Shown here: piece after piece, positions 3,001 through 48,382 of the stretch
Layout of the letters: each line of letters starts with the position of its first letter
Position numbering within the stretch: position 1 is the first letter of the stretch
Assembly: GCA_964586695.1 (NCBI GenBank)
Contig: CAZPGQ010000002.1
Span: 6,337-70,336 of the forward strand
Direction of reading: 5' to 3'
DNA from: an uncultured Candidatus Saccharibacteria bacterium
GTDB taxonomy: Bacteria; Patescibacteriota; Minisyncoccia; Phycocordibacterales; DATDWN01
DNA length: 64,000 nt
The notes under the pieces: generated by a model
What the model was told of the DNA's origin: nothing
Seen by the model: only the letters and a program-made list of their open reading frames with translations
Database searches by the model: none
Made by a program: the position numbers and the translations under genes

Positions 3001-6000
3001 CCGGCACCACCTGTGTCTCCGGTAATTGTTACATTTCCTGTAGCATAAGAATCCTTTAATACAACTCCAGCTCCTGAAATAGAACCAATAAGACCTCCTG
3101 CATTTGATGCTGTTGCTTGAGTAATACCTCCAGCACCGCCGGCACCTCCAGAACTTCCAGCTGCACCGTTTACACCAGCAACTCCAGATCCTCCTGTGCC
3201 ACCTGTATCAGCATTGACAACAACATTATTGGTAGAAAATAGGTTATTGATATAAGCAACAGCAGAGTTACCCCCCAAAGCTCCTCCAACAAAAAGTGCA
3301 CCTGTTGCACCGCCGGCACCTCCAGCACCTCCTACTCCATTTCTTCCACTTCCTGAACCACCTGAACCACCAGCGCCACCTGAACCACCGTTTGCACCTC
3401 CACCACCAGAAGTAGCGGTAATCGTACCACCCTCACTACTTGAATTTGCAATATTTCCGTTCCCTTGACCAACAAGACCTCCTAAATATAAGTTTCCACT
3501 TGCTCCACCCGCTCCACCGGCACCACCAACTCCACCAGTGTGACCACCAGTTCCACTTGCACCGTTTCCTCCTGCGCCGCCGGCACCACCAGCACCACCA
3601 TCAACATTACTACTTGTAATATCTCCTACTACAATTGAATTATTTATAAGTCCTGGATTATCTCCTGCAAGTCCTCCTATATATGTTGCGCCTCCTGCGC
3701 CGCCGGCACCACCAGCACCACCTGTTGCTCCAGCACTTCCAGAAATATTACCGGATGCTCCAGCATTACCTCCGTTTCCACCAACACCTGGTGTTCCACC
3801 TGAGACAGTGATAGTAGTAATTGTATAATTGGTATTTCTAATAACACCAGTATTTGAACCGGCTATACCTCCACCATACCCCGCACCACCGGCACCACCA
3901 GCGCCTCCTACACCACCGGCACCACCTATTGCACCCGTAGAACTACCGCCCGCACCACCATTACCACCTGCACCACCATTACCACCTGCTCCACCTGCTG
4001 AATTAACCGTTCCTGTATTATTTGCAATATTAATTGTTCCTGCTATGACACCATTCCAACCCATAACACCCCCTGCATACGAGGCTCCTCCAGCACCTCC
4101 TGCACCTGCAGCTACTCCGGCAACACCAACAACTCCAGCGCCACTATTACCTCCATTTCCTGCATTTCCACCAGCACCACCAGCACCACCTGTTGCAGAA
4201 ACATTACCATTTGCATAAACATCTGATGCAACAGCACCAACACTAAATCCAATAAGTCCACCTGCTGCACCAACACCACCAACAGTTCCGACACCACCCG
4301 CAATACCAGTTCCTCCAGTAAATGCACCAGTTGATGTTCCTCCATTTGCGCCCGTAGCACCATTTGCACCTGCACCACCCGTTGCTGTTGCATTACCTGT
4401 TGCATAAGAACCTTGCACACTTCCATTTGTAGAATTAAATCCGATAAGCCCACCAGCATATCCAACACCTCCAAGGTTTGTTGCAGTAGCACCAGCTGCT
4501 CCACCAGCACCTCCAGCAGATGTTGCTCTATCACCACCAACACCACCACCACCATTCGCTCCACCGGCACCTCCAGTTGCTATCGCATTTCCAGTAGAAT
4601 ATGTCTCATGTATAGAACCTGTATTCATACCAACTGCTCCACCAGAATATCCAGCTGCTCCAACAACACCGGCACCTCCCACACCTCCAGCAGCACCCAC
4701 ACCTCCAGCTCCACCAGTCCCACCGATACCAGATGATCCTCCTGTTGAAGTAACAACAATATCAGCATATGAATCATTCACCACTCCAGCAGAATTAAAT
4801 GCAACAAGACCGCCTGCATATCCAATACCACCAGCACCGCTCGCACCACCTGTTCCACCCGCTGCACCAAGAGCTCCAGTACCACCGATACCACCAGCAC
4901 CACCTGTTGCACCTGTTCCACCATTACTACCGATTGAAGTAACAGAACCAGTTTCAAAATTTACCGAAGTTATACTTGCAGTATTTAAACCAGCAATACC
5001 ACCTGAATATGCAACTGCACCCGCACCTCCTGCTCCACCTGTAGCTCCTGCAGCACCAGTACTTGAAGCACCACCAGAAACATTACTGCCACCAAGACCC
5101 GCTGAACCACCATTCGCACCAGCAGATGCTGTTGCAGTTATTGTTCCACTTGCATAAGAATTAATAATTGTGTTTGTGTTGTTACCAACAACTCCAGATG
5201 CATACGCAATGGCACCAGCACCACCCGTGCCTCCAGTACCTCCTACTGCTCCTGCTCCAACAAAGGTTCCCACTGACGCACCTCCGGTACCACCGGAACC
5301 ACCAACCTGTGCAGTTCCTCCAAGTGAAGTAACATTACCTGTTGAATACGAAGTATCTTGAATCACACCAGCACTTTGTCCTGCTACACCTCCTGCAGTA
5401 GCAACACCACCAGCGCCTCCTGCTCCAGCAGCAGCACCAATACCACCCGCAAAGTTTGTTCCACCAACACCGCCAGTTCCTCCATTTCCAGCAGAACCAC
5501 CTGCACCACCAGTAACAAAAACATTTCCAGTATTGTAACTACTAGTAACTGTTCCTAGAATAATCTGTCCAACTACTCCTCCACCAAATGCTGCACCTCC
5601 TGCTCCACCAGCAGCTCCAGTCGATCCTGCTCCACCAGTGTTTGAAGTTCCCGCTCCACCATTCCCCCCGTTACCTCCGAGTCCACCAACACCACCAGTT
5701 GATGTAGCAATACCTGTTGAATATGAATTTTGAATTTCTCCGTTGTTAAGGTACCCAACAACACCACCTGCATAAGCGATACCACCTGCAGCTCCCGCTG
5801 AACCCGCAATACCAGCTACACCTGTTGTGAAAGTGTATCCATTACCACCATTTGCACCTGCTCCACCAGCACCAGATGTTCCTTCTACATTACTTGTTGA
5901 ATATGAGTCAGAAATTGTAGTTCCTGTATTGTGTCCAACAACTCCTCCCGCATAAATAATTCCTCCAACTGTTGCAGCACCAGCTGCACCTTGTGTTCCA

Positions 6001-9000
6001 CCTGTCCATGCACCACCAGCACCACCTGCGCCAGCAGATCCTCCTGCACCAGCTACACCAACTACACTACCGGTAGTATGGTAACTTTCTCTAACTGACA
6101 ACGTGCTGTTACCTGCAATTCCTCCAATATATAAAACTCCAGCTGCACCTCCAGTTCCGCCAGCAATACCAGCAAGTCCGTTCTGGGCCGCCACACCTGT
6201 GGCTCCTGCACCACCTGCACCACCAGTGCCAGACACAGCATTTGTAGAAGATGCAAATGCATTAACACCAAGATTACTTGCAACAACACCTCCAACATAT
6301 GCAGTACCACCAGCTCCACCTGCACCAGATGCACCCCCGGCACCAGATGTTCCCGCTGATCCCTTTGCACCACCGGATCCTCCAGTACCCCCAACTCCTC
6401 CAACTCCACCGACGACACTAACTAGTCCAGTCGTTGAATTTACATATCTAATCGCTCCATTATTTAATCCAACCAAGCCACCTGAATATGCTCCACCACC
6501 AGCACCACCAACAGACCCAGCTCCACCAGCACCACCTGTACCTGTAGTAGTAAGTGAAGCACTACCACCTGCTCCACCCGTAGTACCATTTTTACCCGCA
6601 GATCCTGTTGCCGTTACAACACCACTAGCGTAAACTTCTAAAGTTTCGCCTGAAATAATTCCTGATATACCATTTTGAGCAACGAGTCCTCCAGCGTATG
6701 CGATTGCTCCAGCACCACCAGCACCTCCAGTCGCAGTTGCACCAGATGCACCAGCAGCCACTGAACCCGCGGCAGAAGCACCACCCGCACTTCCCGCTGA
6801 ACCGTTACCTGGTGTACCACCAGTTGCCTGGACAACTCCTGTTGCATAACTTCCATTTTCAATAGTTCCTGAATTGTTTCCAACTAATCCACCTGCATAC
6901 GAAACACCACCAATTCCTCCAGCGGCACCGGCACCACCAATTCCTCCAATATTTGATCCTCCACCACCAGTTCCTGCATTACCCCCAGTACCAGATGTTC
7001 CTGCATTACCACCTGCACCACCTAGCGCAGTAACTTCTCCAGTAGTGAAAGAGGAACTCACTGTCCCGGCTTGTATCCATCCTACAAGTCCTCCAACATA
7101 AGAAACGCCTCCGGCTCCAGCTACTGCAGCTGCACCGCCTGCTCCACCAATTCCAGTTCCAACTCCAGTGACTGATCCATTTCCTCCATTTCCTGCATTT
7201 CCACTTGCACCTCCTGCTCCACCAGTACCAATAATTGTTGCCGTACTTGTTGCAGTTGCAATACTTCCTTGTTGTGAATATCCAACTACACCTCCCACAT
7301 ACACAGTACCGCCAATTGCAGCGGCATTACTAACAGCTGAACCACCTAAACCACCAGTGTTCGTCCCAGTTGTAGTGTTTCCACCGTTACCGCCAGCACC
7401 TCCTGCACCACCAGCACCTCCTGCACCAGTAACACTTCCCGCAACTCCAACATTTGTAATTGTTCCTGTGTTATATCCAACCAAACCACCGAGATATAAA
7501 ACACTACCCGCAGTACCAGCACCACCGTTAGTACCCGCAGTTGGTGATGCTCCATCCGATCCAGCTGAACCAGTACTACCTACAGTTCCCGCGGTACTTG
7601 TTGCACTAACAGATAAACCAGAAAGATATACATTTTGAATAAGGTTTGTTGAATATCCAAAAATTCCCACATAACTTGATGTCGTTGTGGCAATAAATAA
7701 ATTGCTTATGGTGAAATTATTTCCATCAAAAATTCCTGTAAATGTATTAACAGTTGAATTGCCCACTGGATCAAAACCGGCTCCAGAGTTCCAACCAGTT
7801 GTATTTGTGGCATCTATGTTGTTGTTTAATTTATAAGAACTTGATGTCGCAGTTTTCATTCCCTGTAGTCCATACACATCATAAATTATGAAAGGGTCTG
7901 TACTTATACCCAATCCGGTATATCGACGAAATGTACCTGCGCTTACAGAAAAACTTCCTGTCACGGTTAATGTATTTGTTTCAGGATTGGTCGCTGTAAA
8001 TGTCGCTGCAGATGTCTGAGAATAATTTCCAGACTGGCCACCAGAGTTTGTAATTGTAAGATCTTCACTTTGAACAATTGTCCCTGTATATCCACTGATA
8101 GTGATTGAGCCTGCAGTCGCAGAAGTATCTATGGTAATTACAGAAGATGCAGATCCAGAACTTGCATCAAAAAATACCGCAGTTGTTGCATCTGGAATAC
8201 CACCAAAACTTCCAGCCACACCGTTAGAAGATGCAGCCCATTTGTTTGAATCAGACCAATTTCCAGTACCTCCCACCCAGTAAGCATTTGGGTCAGTGAT
8301 GTAGTCTATCTCAATATTACCAATAATCTTTAAATCAAAAACTGCTGTCGGATTTATAAGCCCATTAAGAACTAGACTGTATCTTCCGTCACTACCGATT
8401 GTCGCAAAAGTTCCAACGTATGTACCATCAATTGTATAAACTTCTACCGTTACGGGAGAGCTGGAGCTAGCAGGTCGAGCAAACAATGTAATGTCACGTG
8501 TATTATCCAAAAGATGTTCAAATGTAACTCGCACATACTGCCCATCTAAAATACTCACATAATTTTGATCACGTGTTTTAACTAAATCATAAATATCCTC
8601 AATAACATTTTTAGCACTGTCCAATCTCATAGCATTTGAAATTAAAATAATTTCAAAAATCTGTGTAGACAAATGTGGAACTATCCATGCTACGTGATCT
8701 ATGTAACCGTTTCCATCTTCATCAGTTGCAACAAATTGCATTTCCTGAGCTCCGTTATTTTTCCACTGAATTTTAATTTTACTTTCATCACCCACTTTAA
8801 AAATTTCTGGTATAGCAGTTTGAACTGGAATGTTTATCATCGGTGTAATCAACTCCTGTTCCGGTGTTGCTGAAACTACTACTGTTTTTCCATTCTCTGA
8901 AATTTGCTCAACGATTGTTGGAATTTCTATTTGTGAAGATTGCGAACCTCCACCAGAAAGTGAATCATGGGTTTCAACTGAAGTTGTAGAATTCTGACTT

Positions 9001-14309: not shown

Positions 14310-14364
14310 AGTTCTAATTCACTACACCCGTGTTTTGTGGCTAATTTATTTAGTGAAAAAGTTG

Positions 14365-14439
14365 CGCGGTCGACCGGACTTGAACCGGCAGCCTCTCCCG
14401 TGACAGGGGAGTGCTCTAACCAAATTGAGCTACGACCGC
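14365..14439 (-). tRNA. tRNA-Asp (anticodon GUC)
   Basis: Minus strand: acceptor gcggtcg/cgaccgc, anticodon stem ctccc/gggag, loop ctGTCac, T arm ccgg-ttcaagt-ccgg. Confidence 0.75.
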
Positions 14440-14530
14440 ATATATGCGAACAGATAAAACTGTAGCAGATTTTTAAGCTGAAATCAATTTATAAAAATAA
14501 GGATCAGTCCCCTATTTAAAGTGCACAAGA

Positions 14531-14557
14531 TTACGTCTTGTGTCGAGGGTGGGTTAC
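14531..14557 (-). repeat. Direct repeat of the last about 27 nt (T-arm 3' side + acceptor 3' strand + trailer) of the tRNA(CAU) gene at 14700-14772
   Basis: cgtcttgtgtcgagggtgggttac at 14533-14557 matches cgtttgtgtcgagggtgggttac at 14697-14720. The intervening about 140 bp is GC-rich with multiple hairpins (gcgac..gtcgc, cctggtc-tact-gaccagg, gaaagccg-taaca-cggctttc). Confidence 0.7.
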
Positions 14558-14699
14558 TTCCGCGACTATTTTTTCGCCGTCGCTCAAAAATGTCGTGTCC
14601 GCGACTCGCGACCTGGTCTACTGACCAGGTGCCCGCTCCGTCCATCGAACCCACACGAAAGCCGTAACACGGCTTTCTCCTCGCACAAAACTACGTTTG

Positions 14700-14772
14700 T
14701 GTCGAGGGTGGGTTACGATCCCACTGCCTTGGGCTTATGAGTCCCACGCTCTACCAATTGAGCTACCCCGAC
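14700..14772 (-). tRNA. tRNA with CAU anticodon (elongator Met or Ile2/lysidine type)
   Basis: Minus strand: G1-C72 acceptor gtcgggg/cctcgac, D arm gctc/gagc, loop ctCATaa (A31-G39 mismatch noted), T arm gtggg-atcgtaa-cccac. Confidence 0.65.
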
Positions 14773-14817: not shown

Positions 14818-14846
14818 TTGCAAAGTGCTAAAAACAGTTGTAGAAT
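14818..14846 (+). promoter_or_regulatory. Sigma70-like promoter for the plus-strand tRNA (TTGCAA-17 nt-TAGAAT)
   Basis: ttgcaa at 14818-14823, 17-nt spacer, tagaat at 14841-14846, about 7 nt upstream of the tRNA 5' end. Confidence 0.5.
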
Positions 14847-14853
14847 GACCTGT

Positions 14854-14924
14854 AGCGGGATGGAGAAGCAGTATCTCGGTAGGCTCATAACCTGCAGACC
14901 CAGGTGCAAGTCCTGGTCCCGCAA
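14854..14924 (+). tRNA. tRNA-Met (anticodon CAU) with initiator-like features
   Basis: Acceptor agcggga/tcccgca with unpaired 1-72 (A-A). A11:U24 in D stem (gaga/tctc). Anticodon stem gtagg/cctgc, loop ctCATaa. T arm ccagg-tgcaagt-cctgg. Confidence 0.6.
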
Positions 14925-14925
14925 C

Positions 14926-14972
14926 AAGTATGAAAAAAGAACCCTTATGGGTTCTTTTTTCATACTTGTTGC
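14926..14972. terminator. Perfect 21-bp-arm palindrome (bidirectional terminator candidate)
   Basis: acaagtatgaaaaaagaaccc-ttat-gggttcttttttcatacttgt lies between the 3' end of the plus tRNA and the 3' end of minus gene 15115-16053. Confidence 0.6.
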
Positions 14973-15114
14973 GGACAGACATAGTGCCGAGCACTATGTC
15001 GTCAGGACTTGCAAGGCGGAGCGGGCACACACTCACCAGAGTGGGTCGAGAGCCGGGGAGGCGGAAATTTTGTTGCAACAAAATTATCCGTCGACGATGT
15101 CCTGGTCCAATTTT

Positions 15115-38647: not shown

Positions 38648-38737
38648 ATGCTCAACATTATCTCACTCAGAGAAATAAAAGTCTATGAAATATGAGAACT
38701 TATCCACAAAACATTCGGCATATTTAAAATTCCAATG

Positions 38738-38826
38738 CGGAGACGGACGGATTCGAACCGTCGGTGCCGTTTAAAGGGCACACCTCTTTAGCAAAGAGGC
38801 ACGTTAGACCACTCTGACACGTCTCC
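38738..38826 (-). tRNA. tRNA-Ser (anticodon GCU), class II
   Basis: Acceptor ggagacg/cgtctcc, anticodon stem cctct/agagg, loop ttGCTaa, long variable arm, T arm ttcgaat. Confidence 0.75.
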
Positions 38827-38891: not shown

Positions 38892-38978
38892 GGAGAGATG
38901 GATGAGTGGCTTAAATCAACGGTTTACTAAACCGTCATCCCTTAATTGGGATCGCGAGTTCGAATCTCGCTCTCTCCG
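38892..38978 (+). tRNA. Class II (Ser-type) tRNA whose anticodon reads ACU as drawn (unusual A34). Needs tRNAscan-SE verification.
   Basis: Acceptor ggagaga/tctctcc, D stem gat/atc, anticodon stem acggt/accgt, loop ttACTaa, variable stem atccc/gggat, T arm gcgag-ttcgaat-ctcgc. Confidence 0.6.
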
Positions 38979-39125
38979 CAAGTAAAAATTACTTGTAATT
39001 TTTATCGAAGGAGAGGAGGACTAGCTTTTTGTATTCAAAAAGCGTTAGTCGATTCGAAAAGGTTCTTTAGATATTTTTAGAGCTTGCGAATAAAAATATC
39101 AAAAACCTGCACTGAAACTGTAAGT

Positions 39126-39147
39126 TTCGAATCTCGCTCTCTCCGCA
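39126..39147 (+). repeat. Direct repeat of the 3'-terminal 22 nt of the tRNA at 38892-38978, located about 145 bp downstream
   Basis: ttcgaatctcgctctctccgca occurs at 38959-38980 and again at 39126-39147. Confidence 0.7.
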
Positions 39148-44834: not shown

Positions 44835-44908
44835 AAACTCCGTGCGCCTGCCAGGATTCGAACCTGGGACCCCAGAGGTATAAGCTCTGTGCTCTAACCA
44901 ACTGAGCT
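44835..44908 (-). tRNA. tRNA-Ile (anticodon UAU) by loop reading
   Basis: Acceptor gcgcctg/caggcgc, D arm gctc-agttggtta-gagc, anticodon stem cagag/ctctg, loop ctTATac, T arm ccagg-ttcgaat-cctgg. Confidence 0.65.
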
Positions 44909-44988
44909 ACAGGCGCACGCAATTTTCTTCCATCCCATATAGCTGGTTCGATCGGATGTAATGAAAGCAAGCTTTCGCCACATCCTCA

Positions 44989-47984: not shown

Positions 47985-48378
47985 GGGGGATGACAGGCAT
48001 AGACAAGTAAGTCCTTTGACAATGTGCACGACAGAACTGAAGTAATTCTTTAAACTGCTTCAAAGCATAGATGCTAAAAACACCTTTGCAAAAGCAATCC
48101 CTTCACCATTTATGGCGAATGGATTCGCTCTCGCTTTCGCTTAATCTTTTAGATTAAACCAAAACGGCGGCTATTCCTCGAAGTCTGTTACAGGAAATAG
48201 TTGATATATCATCGGACTTGAGAACGTCTTAGTTTCGAGGCGGACTGACACAAAGAAAACTAAAATACAATTCATTTTGTTGGTTTAAAGAATTGTATTT
48301 GAAAAATAAAACCAACTACGTCGTGTAGAAACATTGCCAAAACTTATTTGCACGGCGGTTCAAATCCGCCCTTCTCCA
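47985..48378 (+). ncRNA. ssrA: tmRNA (ssrA): tRNA-Ala-like ends plus tag reading frame ANGFALAFA-stop
   Basis: 5' GGGGGAUGACAGGCAUAGAC. 3' T arm ggcgg-ttcaaat-ccgcc + acceptor cttctcc + A, with G3-U70 wobble pairing to the 5' end. In-frame gcg aat gga ttc gct ctc gct ttc gct TAA at 48115-48144. Immediately downstream of smpB, and followed by a terminator. Confidence 0.7.
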
Positions 48379-48382
48379 CAAA

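Follow-up and report, generated by a model that had tools for sequence, protein, structure and literature searches.

A repeat-bounded insertion behind a tRNA-Met(CAU) gene as a probable member of a Patescibacteria-wide family of structured tRNA-flank cassettes

What does a duplicated tRNA 3' end record when the sequence between its two copies is too short to encode anything? The question is raised by a 64,000-nt stretch of an uncultured Candidatus Saccharibacteria genome (GenBank assembly GCA_964586695.1, contig CAZPGQ010000002.1, positions 6,337 to 70,336 of the forward strand), referred to here as the window, in which the 3' portion of a minus-strand tRNA-Met(CAU) gene recurs downstream of that gene and encloses a compact, GC-rich segment. 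An earlier note on this DNA had taken the duplication for the scar of an integrase-mediated insertion, and had considered the enclosed segment to be a decayed remnant, a miniature element, or a structured small RNA linked to the tRNA. The analysis described here points to a complete element, E1, which probably belongs to a family of tRNA-flank cassettes without open reading frames (ORFs) that is spread over the Patescibacteria.

The 20-nt sequence TTGTGTCGAGGGTGGGTTAC is found exactly at 14538-14557 and at 14697-14716, with a start-to-start spacing of 159 nt, and in the extended repeat (14531-14557 against 14691-14716) 26 of 27 positions are alike, with a single C inserted or deleted. The number of exact 20-mers that would recur by chance within about 200 nt in 64 kb is about 1e-5 (64000 x 200 / 4^20). 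Read on the minus strand, the copy at 14697-14716 comprises the 3' part of the T-loop, the 3' strands of the T-stem and of the acceptor stem, the discriminator, and the first trailer bases of the tRNA-Met(CAU) gene at 14699-14772. The 139 nt between the copies have a GC content of 57-59%, against 22-37% in the flanks, and the window as a whole is an AT-rich (about 30% GC) bacterial chromosome. The segment also folds more stably than its shuffled versions (z = -5.4 for the minus and -6.7 for the plus strand), none of 200 shuffles being as stable. The repeat and the GC-rich segment reported by the earlier note both stand, and three features come in addition: the trailer hairpin of the tRNA is duplicated after the second repeat copy, the tRNA 3' arm has its reverse complement in the 5' part of the segment, and two further elements are present in the window.

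The E1 insertion covers 14491-14698 (208 bp) and holds no ORF. The 3' arm of the host tRNA, from the T-loop to the discriminator plus a few trailer bases, is designated X, and its true reverse complement X'. On the tRNA strand, the order is X, trailer hairpin, the acceptor part of the antisense arm or X'(acc), the hairpin P2, the T-arm part or X'(T), the core, X again (the second direct repeat, DR2), and a second trailer hairpin. The features are as follows, all on the minus strand.

14699..14772, minus strand: tRNA-Met(CAU) no. 1, the host of E1 (ARAGORN; Rfam tRNA model, 58.6 bits)
14690..14716, minus strand: first repeat copy (X), tRNA positions ~57-73 plus trailer, exact part 14697-14716 (repeat search, sequence)
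14679..14707, minus strand: H0 hairpin, acceptor 3' strand plus trailer (CCUCG-A-CACAAA) paired with UUUGUG-CGAGG (sequence; RNAfold of tRNA plus E1)
14679..14686, minus strand: X'(acc), GUGCGAGG, antisense of the acceptor 3' strand (sequence; cognate against non-cognate complementarity)
14657..14677, minus strand: P2 hairpin, GAAAGCCGU-GUU-ACGGCUUUC, 9 bp, with a 5' GA and a 3' GU flank (folding)
14644..14654, minus strand: X'(T), GUGGGUUCGAU, antisense of the T-stem 3' strand and T-loop (sequence; changes in step with the L045 tRNA T-arm)
14555..14651, minus strand: type-1 core (covariance model R1, 98.4 bits, E = 2.9e-24; covariation)
14531..14557, minus strand: second repeat copy (DR2), sense tRNA 3' arm, exact part 14538-14557, pairing with X' as the closing helix P1 (repeat search, folding)
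14491..14542, minus strand: second trailer hairpin CACAAGA-CGUAA-UCUUGUG (14524-14542) and a weak U-rich terminator-like tail (sequence; filled/empty alignment)
14364..14439, minus strand: tRNA-Asp(GUC), the downstream neighbour of E1 (ARAGORN)

The antisense arm X' has two partners: the 3' arm of the tRNA itself, with which it forms H0, and DR2, with which it forms P1. The type-1 core consists of Pa (3 bp), a G bulge with tandem G.A/A.G pairs, Pb (GCGG/UCGC), the Pc hairpin, a junction, and an AU-rich helix Pd with a GACG apex. The earlier count of at least four hairpins is accounted for by P2, Pa/Pb/Pc, Pd, and the closing helix.

The limits of E1 become clear when the locus is compared with its counterparts in relatives, here given numbers with the prefix L. 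The syntenic relatives are L045 and L091, taken from the loci of the genome scan described below (GatA 63-77% identical), and L120 to L123, reached through the neighbouring 312-aa protein (63-66% identical). The locus between tRNA-Met and tRNA-Asp is filled in the window and L045 and empty in L121 and L120; L121 has the tRNA-Met variant of the window, and L120 that of L045. In the empty alleles, a conserved spacer, AAATTGAT...TAAAAATCTG, lies within about 10 nt of the tRNA. In the filled alleles, the element sits exactly between the tRNA end and this spacer, and the sequence after DR2 continues as in the empty alleles. The distal end of E1 was set by this alignment, with the conserved AAATTGAT at 14483-14490. 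The two X copies mark the exact borders of E1, which is a dispensable, discrete indel. The orthologous loci thus do include both filled and empty alleles, and the insertion proposed in the earlier note stands insofar as the repeat bounds a discrete insertion that L120 and L121 lack; a part played by an integrase is not supported, as none is encoded nearby and no viral contig matches.

Presence and absence also vary at other tRNA genes. The flank of the initiator-like tRNA occurs in five states, namely a plain terminator hairpin (L121), a remnant of H0 and P2 (L120), a full element with a 17-nt DR2 (L122), a 3'-truncated copy (E2 of the window, described below), and a degenerate copy (L123). 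Similarly, tRNA-Thr(GGU) is followed by an element in L045, L060, L092, and L120, and by none in the window, L091, and L121. As regards the alleles themselves, the initiator tRNA and tRNA-Thr genes of L120 and L121 are identical and the sequence upstream of tRNA-Thr is about 90% identical, and the tRNA-Met variants of these two genomes differ, each being identical to that of a more distant genome. That such close kin carry different tRNA-Met variants indicates allele exchange at the locus, and suggests that tRNA-locus alleles may be replaced by recombination.

The spacer beyond E1, AAATTGAT...TAAAAATCTGCTACA (14483-14490, on to 14440), lies upstream of tRNA-Asp and is kept in four genomes. It looks like a tRNA-Asp promoter, and the E1 transcript would therefore probably end at the weak U-run at 14491-14500.

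Homologues of E1 were found in large number. An exact scan for the core pattern in 185,579 species genomes matched at least 119 loci; among the matches listed, about 45 are Patescibacteria, all with the same 15-nt spacing, and the remainder are high-GC chance matches. A covariance model, R1, was built from an alignment of 38 copies and has a consensus fold of 23 pairs. In the window it scores 98 bits on E1 and 78 bits on E2, and finds no third type-1 copy in the 64 kb. Among the matches listed, R1 recovers at least 61 copies in at least 43 AT-rich sources and 6 more strong copies in higher-GC Patescibacteria loci, and all copies lie in Patescibacteria or in unclassified metagenome-assembled genomes (MAGs) of small size. 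Applied to about 70 of the high-GC chance loci, actinobacterial and other, the same model returned nothing above 28 bits. Several MAGs hold 2-5 copies within the few kilobases that were fetched. Variants of the type-1 core were also seen: a copy in L029 (7830-7990), in tandem with the GC-rich type, has a large expansion in place of Pb/Pc, and a copy in L120 (5609-5708) lacks the 'invariant' GGGCAC...GGU and retains a longer Pc helix.

Rfam, to which the earlier note had looked for an identity, supplied none. The search of Rfam 15 with E1 and E2 gave no matching family even at E <= 10, apart from microRNA-like noise on the palindrome of E2, and at gathering score the window and 16 related loci gave tRNA and tmRNA (transfer-messenger RNA) matches only. 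The core pattern had no match in 2.9 million viral contigs, a search that did not take in plasmids. All-against-all clustering of the neighbouring ORFs returned no protein cluster common to the loci, only spurious antisense ORFs and synteny between close relatives, and no integrase, reverse transcriptase, or other linked gene was found near the elements, either among the window neighbours or in the clustered loci. A full-text literature search on tRNA-linked RNAs, introns, and trailers of the Patescibacteria, also known as the candidate phyla radiation (CPR), retrieved no description of such elements, and this family of CPR tRNA-flank cassettes has apparently not been described before.

These results bear directly on the fate of the enclosed segment. 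The earlier note had allowed that it might be unique, without any homologue elsewhere, and then just a decayed remnant; the existence of homologues counts against a mere remnant, since E1 has a paralogue (E2) in the same intergenic region and relatives in other Patescibacteria. With about 40 Patescibacteria genomes carrying it and full covariation among the copies, the unit of about 180 nt is conserved and complete, which is not the picture of decay. The two fallbacks offered by the earlier note, a miniature element and a tRNA-linked structured small RNA, hold together.

The fold is documented by covariation. Across 61 copies, 98.1% of the alignment cells are paired, a percentage that is somewhat inflated because the alignment was fitted to the model, and double changes occur at 23 of the 23 pairs. 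The covariation score is 0.772, compared with 0.213 for shuffles and 0.05-0.16 for slid controls. G.U pairs outnumber A.C pairs by 89 to 4, or by 38 to 4 when the one invariant G.U is set aside, and this excess means that it is the tRNA-sense strand that folds, most likely as RNA. The tRNA-sense strand of the family has a conserved, covarying fold in which P1 (X' paired with X) closes a junction with P2 and a two-hairpin core. Conservation is highest in an irregular helix made of Pa, the bulged G, the tandem G.A/A.G, Pb (GCGG/UCGC), and Pc with its ANYA loop. P2 is present in 29 of 42 copies, 14 of which also have the GU linker. Among intact orthologous copies, H0, P2, Pc, and Pd are kept through compensatory changes; the helix equivalent to H0 of E1 covaries among orthologues, and the P2 stem of E1 covaries with L045 and is almost identical in L039. 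The orthologue of E2 in L045 (2451-2548, minus strand) departs from this scheme, with three U-A pairs replacing the conserved GGA/GAG internal loop, so that Pa and Pb are fused as a perfect 10-bp helix; the other parts of the fold are retained.

With respect to known RNA motifs, the GGA/GA loop has a bulge of 1 nt, compared with 3 nt in a kink-turn. Small ribozymes were set aside, as no match was found to the hammerhead (CUGAUGA/GAAA), hairpin, twister, hepatitis delta virus, or pistol motifs. No consistently unpaired site was found at the tRNA 3' end.

The elements are tied to tRNA genes in position as well as in sequence. A tRNA gene on the same strand lies 15-93 nt upstream in 43 of the 44 copies examined, and the linked tRNAs cover at least 14 identities (Ser, Leu, Thr, Tyr, Glu, Ala, Gly, Trp, Arg, Met, His, Pro, Gln, and Lys). 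When the 5' arm is compared with the last 20 nt of the tRNA, the median exact antisense run is 9 nt for the cognate tRNA and 5 nt for non-cognate ones; for the 3' arm, the median direct-repeat run is 10 nt against 5 nt. The repeats of the family begin at about T-loop position 56/57 and range from 10 to 53 nt, reaching 41-53 nt when the whole trailer hairpin is included. In many copies (E2, L039, L042, and L048), DR2 lacks the acceptor part. Downstream of tRNAs that have no element, antisense runs are at chance level only. In L045 as compared with the window, differences in the tRNA T-stem are accompanied by differences in X'(T) and DR2, and a G59/A59 change in the T-loop is answered by C/U in X'. 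Comparison of the sequences shows that the arms follow the sequence of the local tRNA.

The two further elements of the window extend this picture. E2 lies behind a second, divergent tRNA-Met(CAU), and E3 behind a tRNA-Ser(ACU). Their features, all on the plus strand, are listed below.

14818..14846, plus strand: promoter-like site TTGCAA-17-TAGAAT upstream of tRNA-Met no. 2 (consensus match only)
14854..14925, plus strand: tRNA-Met(CAU) no. 2, initiator-like, the host of E2 (ARAGORN; Rfam)
14926..15108, plus strand: E2, behind the divergent tRNA-Met no. 2 (alignment with E1; R1)
14919..14974, plus strand: H0 of E2, in which the tRNA 3' end and trailer form a perfect 26-bp palindrome with their complement (inverted-repeat search)
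14978..15000, plus strand: P2 hairpin of E2 (folding; covaries with L122)
15003..15098, plus strand: X'(T) of E2, CAGGACUUGCA, followed by the type-1 core (R1, 78.0 bits; alignment with E1)
15099..15108, plus strand: DR2 of E2, GUCCUGGUCC, a 10-nt copy of the T-stem and acceptor start, shorter than the full 17-nt DR2 of L122
38959..39147, plus strand: E3, behind tRNA-Ser(ACU) at 38892-38979 (repeat search; core homology)

H0 of E2 holds a terminator-like GAACCC-UUAU-GGGUUC-U6, and the arms of H0 covary in L045, L091, and L122. CAGGACUUGCA matches the T-loop and stem of tRNA-Met no. 2 in antisense at 11 of 11 positions. The cores of E1 and E2 have in common CGGAGCGGGCAC, a 15-nt compensated hairpin, and GGUCGnGAG. 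Both host tRNAs have unusual features: the T-loop of tRNA-Met no. 1 reads AUCGUAA, with A54 and U58 swapped, and tRNA-Met no. 2 has the T-loop UGCAAGU (G55) and an A1 x A72 mismatch. The sequence of tRNA-Met no. 2 is 100% identical in L120-L123, five genomes with that of the window.

E3 is bounded by an exact 22-nt repeat (38959-38980 and 39126-39147), and contains an H0-like inverted repeat, P2 (39020-39049), X'(T) (39050-39058), and an AT-rich core of a second type (39059-39125). By blastn, homologues of this type-2 core are found behind tRNAs in L089 (tRNA-Arg), L045 and L123 (tRNA-Asp), L122, and L048; nhmmer with a two-sequence type-2 alignment gave no match. The arm framework serves at least two unrelated core families. 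Other content was seen in similar surroundings. An unrelated core of 190 nt lies in tandem with a type-1 element in L041 (2230-2440), with the same arms. In L059 (2605-3080), the sequence behind a tRNA-Val consists of a hairpin, then a perfect antisense arm of 16 nt, then about 470 nt of other sequence; no downstream repeat copy and no Rfam match were found for this stretch, which may be a larger or a broken cassette. In L122, a gene resembling LAGLIDADG_3 homing endonucleases (5970-6578) lies between tRNA genes, close to the type-2 core match at 5550-5630.

The explanation considered the most probable, with moderate confidence, is that E1 is a complete copy of a Patescibacteria-wide family of ORF-less, repeat-bounded tRNA-flank cassettes that encode a co-transcribed structured RNA. 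Under this explanation, the cassette would be transcribed by read-through from the tRNA promoter. The position of the cassette on the strand of the tRNA, the tRNA-sense fold, and the lack of anything terminator-like in the sequence between tRNA-Met no. 1 and E1 all fit a read-through RNA. The cassette RNA would then fold on itself, its closing helix mimicking the acceptor/T-arm stack of its tRNA, and X' would be held by DR2 and thereby kept from invading the tRNA. Recombination between the two X copies would lead to precise loss of the cassette. The tRNA gene and the downstream X could moreover serve as two homology arms inside the tRNA gene, by which a second genome with an empty allele of that tRNA might acquire the cassette, either through homologous recombination after DNA uptake or with the help of a recombinase.

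Several points weigh against this explanation. It leaves both the recombination mechanism and the matching of X'/X to different tRNAs unaccounted for, and the transcription of the core is presumed from its position, the E2-type copies having a terminator-like hairpin between the tRNA and the core. The helices kept by compensation at orthologous sites, in genomes whose GatA proteins are 63-77% identical, indicate selection in place, and this argues for a host benefit or a requirement in cis rather than for a purely selfish insert. Within one genome (L007a/b), the core is more conserved than P2 or the spacers, which points to a partner acting in trans. The inflated pairing percentage mentioned above belongs here as well.

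One alternative is a cis-acting switch for tRNA maturation, in which X' pairs either with the tRNA 3' arm (H0, unfolding the acceptor and T stems) or with the decoy DR2 (P1), and a ligand or protein bound by the core decides. X' is truly antisense to the tRNA 3' arm, T-loop bases included, and DR2 is its exact competitor; P1 directly carries the conserved core with its junction and internal loop, an arrangement known from riboswitch aptamers; strand-swapped folds of tRNA plus E1 and of tRNA plus E2 are predicted by RNAfold; and the evolution in place is compensatory. However, an identical tRNA works without an element in L121, and no ligand or partner candidate was found. The L045 copy at the initiator tRNA, with Watson-Crick pairs in place of the GGA/GAG loop, also speaks against a switch. 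Remnants that have X'(acc) and lack DR2(acc) persist in L120 and in E2 of the window, so that sequestration by X' is evidently tolerated, and these decoy-less remnants, together with the unrelated cores that share the arms, weigh against a single ligand-sensing switch, which is accordingly regarded as improbable. A little more credit, still at the level of an unlikely alternative and one that is compatible with a cassette, is given to a host non-coding RNA in a tRNA-like scaffold, where P1(acc), P2, and P1(T) would mimic the acceptor/T-arm stack and RNase P, RNase Z, and CCA-adding enzymes would release a trans-acting RNA of about 150 nt. The three-way junction does have tRNA topology (a 7-bp acceptor-like helix, a hairpin placed exactly at the acceptor/T junction and joined by GA and GU linkers that recur, and an uninterrupted 3' strand), the core sequence is strongly conserved across phyla, and several types of cargo occur on one scaffold. 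Yet P1 runs past position 73 into leader-trailer pairing and leaves no free acceptor end, a duplex takes the place of the T-loop, the DR2 of many copies has no acceptor part, as listed above, and the element is dispensable and often degenerate. Neither ARAGORN nor the Rfam tRNA model calls the element as a tRNA, though the 7-bp acceptor-like and 5-bp T-like helices are present. Equally doubtful is a new kind of tRNA-coupled RNA device, which would take the form either of a protein- or ligand-responsive clamp, with X' toggling between tRNA and decoy, or of excised unit-length RNAs. In the latter form, the RNA termini would abut as a nick in the X/hairpin/X' duplex, and sealing would give viroid-like small circular RNAs. 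With the tRNA as landing pad, such RNAs, or equivalent single-stranded DNA brought in by transformation, might then return to tRNA genes.

Two further readings of E1 were weighed. If E1 were what is left of a larger integrase-borne island or prophage, nearly all of it deleted, the repeat would run from the T-loop past the tRNA end, as it does; many tyrosine integrases use this sublocation of tRNA genes, and tandem arrays with the same repeat exist. Against this, the same core of about 100 nt, its helices covarying, is found in about 40 genomes and behind tRNAs of at least 14 kinds, an outcome on which independent deletions would not converge. No integrase is found nearby, the core is in no viral contig, and the antisense arm X', matched to each host tRNA, is left unaccounted for. 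The island scar is effectively refuted. Hardly more probable is a pseudo-tRNA, that is, a degenerate tandem duplicate of the tRNA with an insertion in the T-loop, the arms being direct copies of the 5' acceptor and T-stem strands. The order of acceptor, hairpin, and T-stem is tRNA-like, and X' does resemble the tRNA 5' strands, because tRNA stems are self-complementary and TTCGAA is palindromic. The diagnostic positions of the 5' arm nevertheless follow the antisense, and the direct-copy reading was rejected: X'(acc) of E1 has A opposite U68, where the 5' strand of the tRNA itself has G (G5), and E2 has U opposite A72 instead of A1. Furthermore, X' contains complements of U60, of the non-canonical T-loops UGCAAGU and UGCAAAU, and of the trailer, and P2 is common to elements of different tRNAs (E1 and L039) and unrelated to the anticodon arm.

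Two more identities were tried and discarded. X' is not the primer-binding site of a retroelement, as it continues as the complement of the genomic trailer (CAAAC...) and has no complement of CCA, that is, no 5'-UGG. The analogies with IS91/IS200-type insertion sequences, bridge RNAs, and TnpB guides fail because no transposase is present and the arms are target-specific.

Each comparison with a known system fails on at least one of the defining features tested; CTXphi, attC sites, intervening sequences (IVS), external guide sequences, and integrase sublocations enter as background. Tandem arrays, filled and empty alleles, and a direct repeat of the tRNA 3' end from the T-loop are shared with tRNA-integrated islands, prophages, and cis-mobilizable elements (CIME), where, likewise, the tRNA is made whole by a copy that the element brings along and its original 3' end comes to lie farther downstream. 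Unlike these, the elements described here measure 180-210 bp, carry no integrase or other gene, and have an internal antisense copy of the attachment (att) site and a covarying single-strand fold; their repeat often reaches into the trailer hairpin, and no viral copies were found. The attP hairpin of CTXphi and integron attC sites are similar in that X/X' could fold one strand into a target-like duplex in a strand-specific manner, and in the alternation of cassette-like units with imperfect palindromes. However, no XerCD- or IntI-type partner was found, and the arms of the palindrome consist of tRNA sequence, not of dif or R/L boxes. The core is conserved where attC varies, and the G.U excess accords with RNA no less than with single-stranded DNA. 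Miniature inverted-repeat transposable elements (MITEs), repetitive extragenic palindromes and their mosaic elements (REP/BIME), and Rickettsia palindromic elements are also short, ORF-less, structured, multi-copy, and patchy, with inverted termini. Their termini are constant, whereas those seen here are copied from each host tRNA, always at one position of a tRNA gene and in one orientation, with no short fixed target duplication and no cognate transposase.

Among RNA-level systems, the IVS of 23S rRNA are sporadic, dispensable inserts of about 100-150 nt in apical loops, with a long closing stem (a possible RNase III site). In contrast, the host is here the flank of a tRNA gene and not a mature RNA, the tRNA staying intact because its 3' arm is duplicated, and conservation of the core extends across phyla. 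In mascRNA/MALAT1, plant mitochondrial t-elements, the tRNA-like domain of tmRNA, and YrlA, too, a functional RNA is accompanied by a coaxial helix of the acceptor/T-arm type and a side hairpin; the present elements differ in having no T-/D-loop elbow, in a helix that passes the discriminator, and in arms that are copied from the adjacent tRNA and are not generic. Riboswitches and other cis-acting RNA switches have a conserved junction core on a P1 whose strand has an alternative partner. In the present case, by contrast, any RNA under control would be encoded upstream of the dispensable element, and it is the tRNA that forms the competing helix.

The genes of the window include gatA, ligA, a D-Ala-D-Ala carboxypeptidase/YkuD protein, a PilX-like gene, and tmRNA, and the neighbours of the E1/E2 region are a NAMPT_N-like ORF, the ORF for the 312-aa protein, and gatA. 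The tmRNA gene (47986-48381) encodes a long tag peptide, AKNTFAKAIPSPFMANGFALAFA. CCA is encoded by no tRNA gene in the window, and many trailers start with CAA(A). The host of E3 is part of a divergent pair of tRNA-Ser(GCU) (38737-38826) and tRNA-Ser(ACU) (38892-38979), and a tRNA-Ile(UAU) is found at 44842-44916; a serine anticodon with A34 and a UAU isoleucine tRNA are both unusual in bacteria. L007 has a tRNA-Ser(ACU) too, with a type-1 element downstream.

The Patescibacteria make up a large share of bacterial diversity, and to our knowledge almost nothing is known of their non-coding RNA biology. In dozens of their genomes, an RNA core of about 100 nt that is present neither in Rfam 15 nor in the searchable literature is attached to many tRNA genes. 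No mobile element or RNA family is known to combine an antisense and a sense copy of the 3' arm of the host tRNA in this way. The repeats and stable structures that the elements create at tRNA loci also affect the assembly of MAGs, the annotation of tRNAs, and the prediction of islands from att sites. If the elements are selfish, they would represent a gene-free colonisation of tRNA genes, in which the tRNA provides both a safe site and a homology arm; if they are functional, they would amount either to a novel level of control over tRNAs or to a scaffolded RNA of a new kind.

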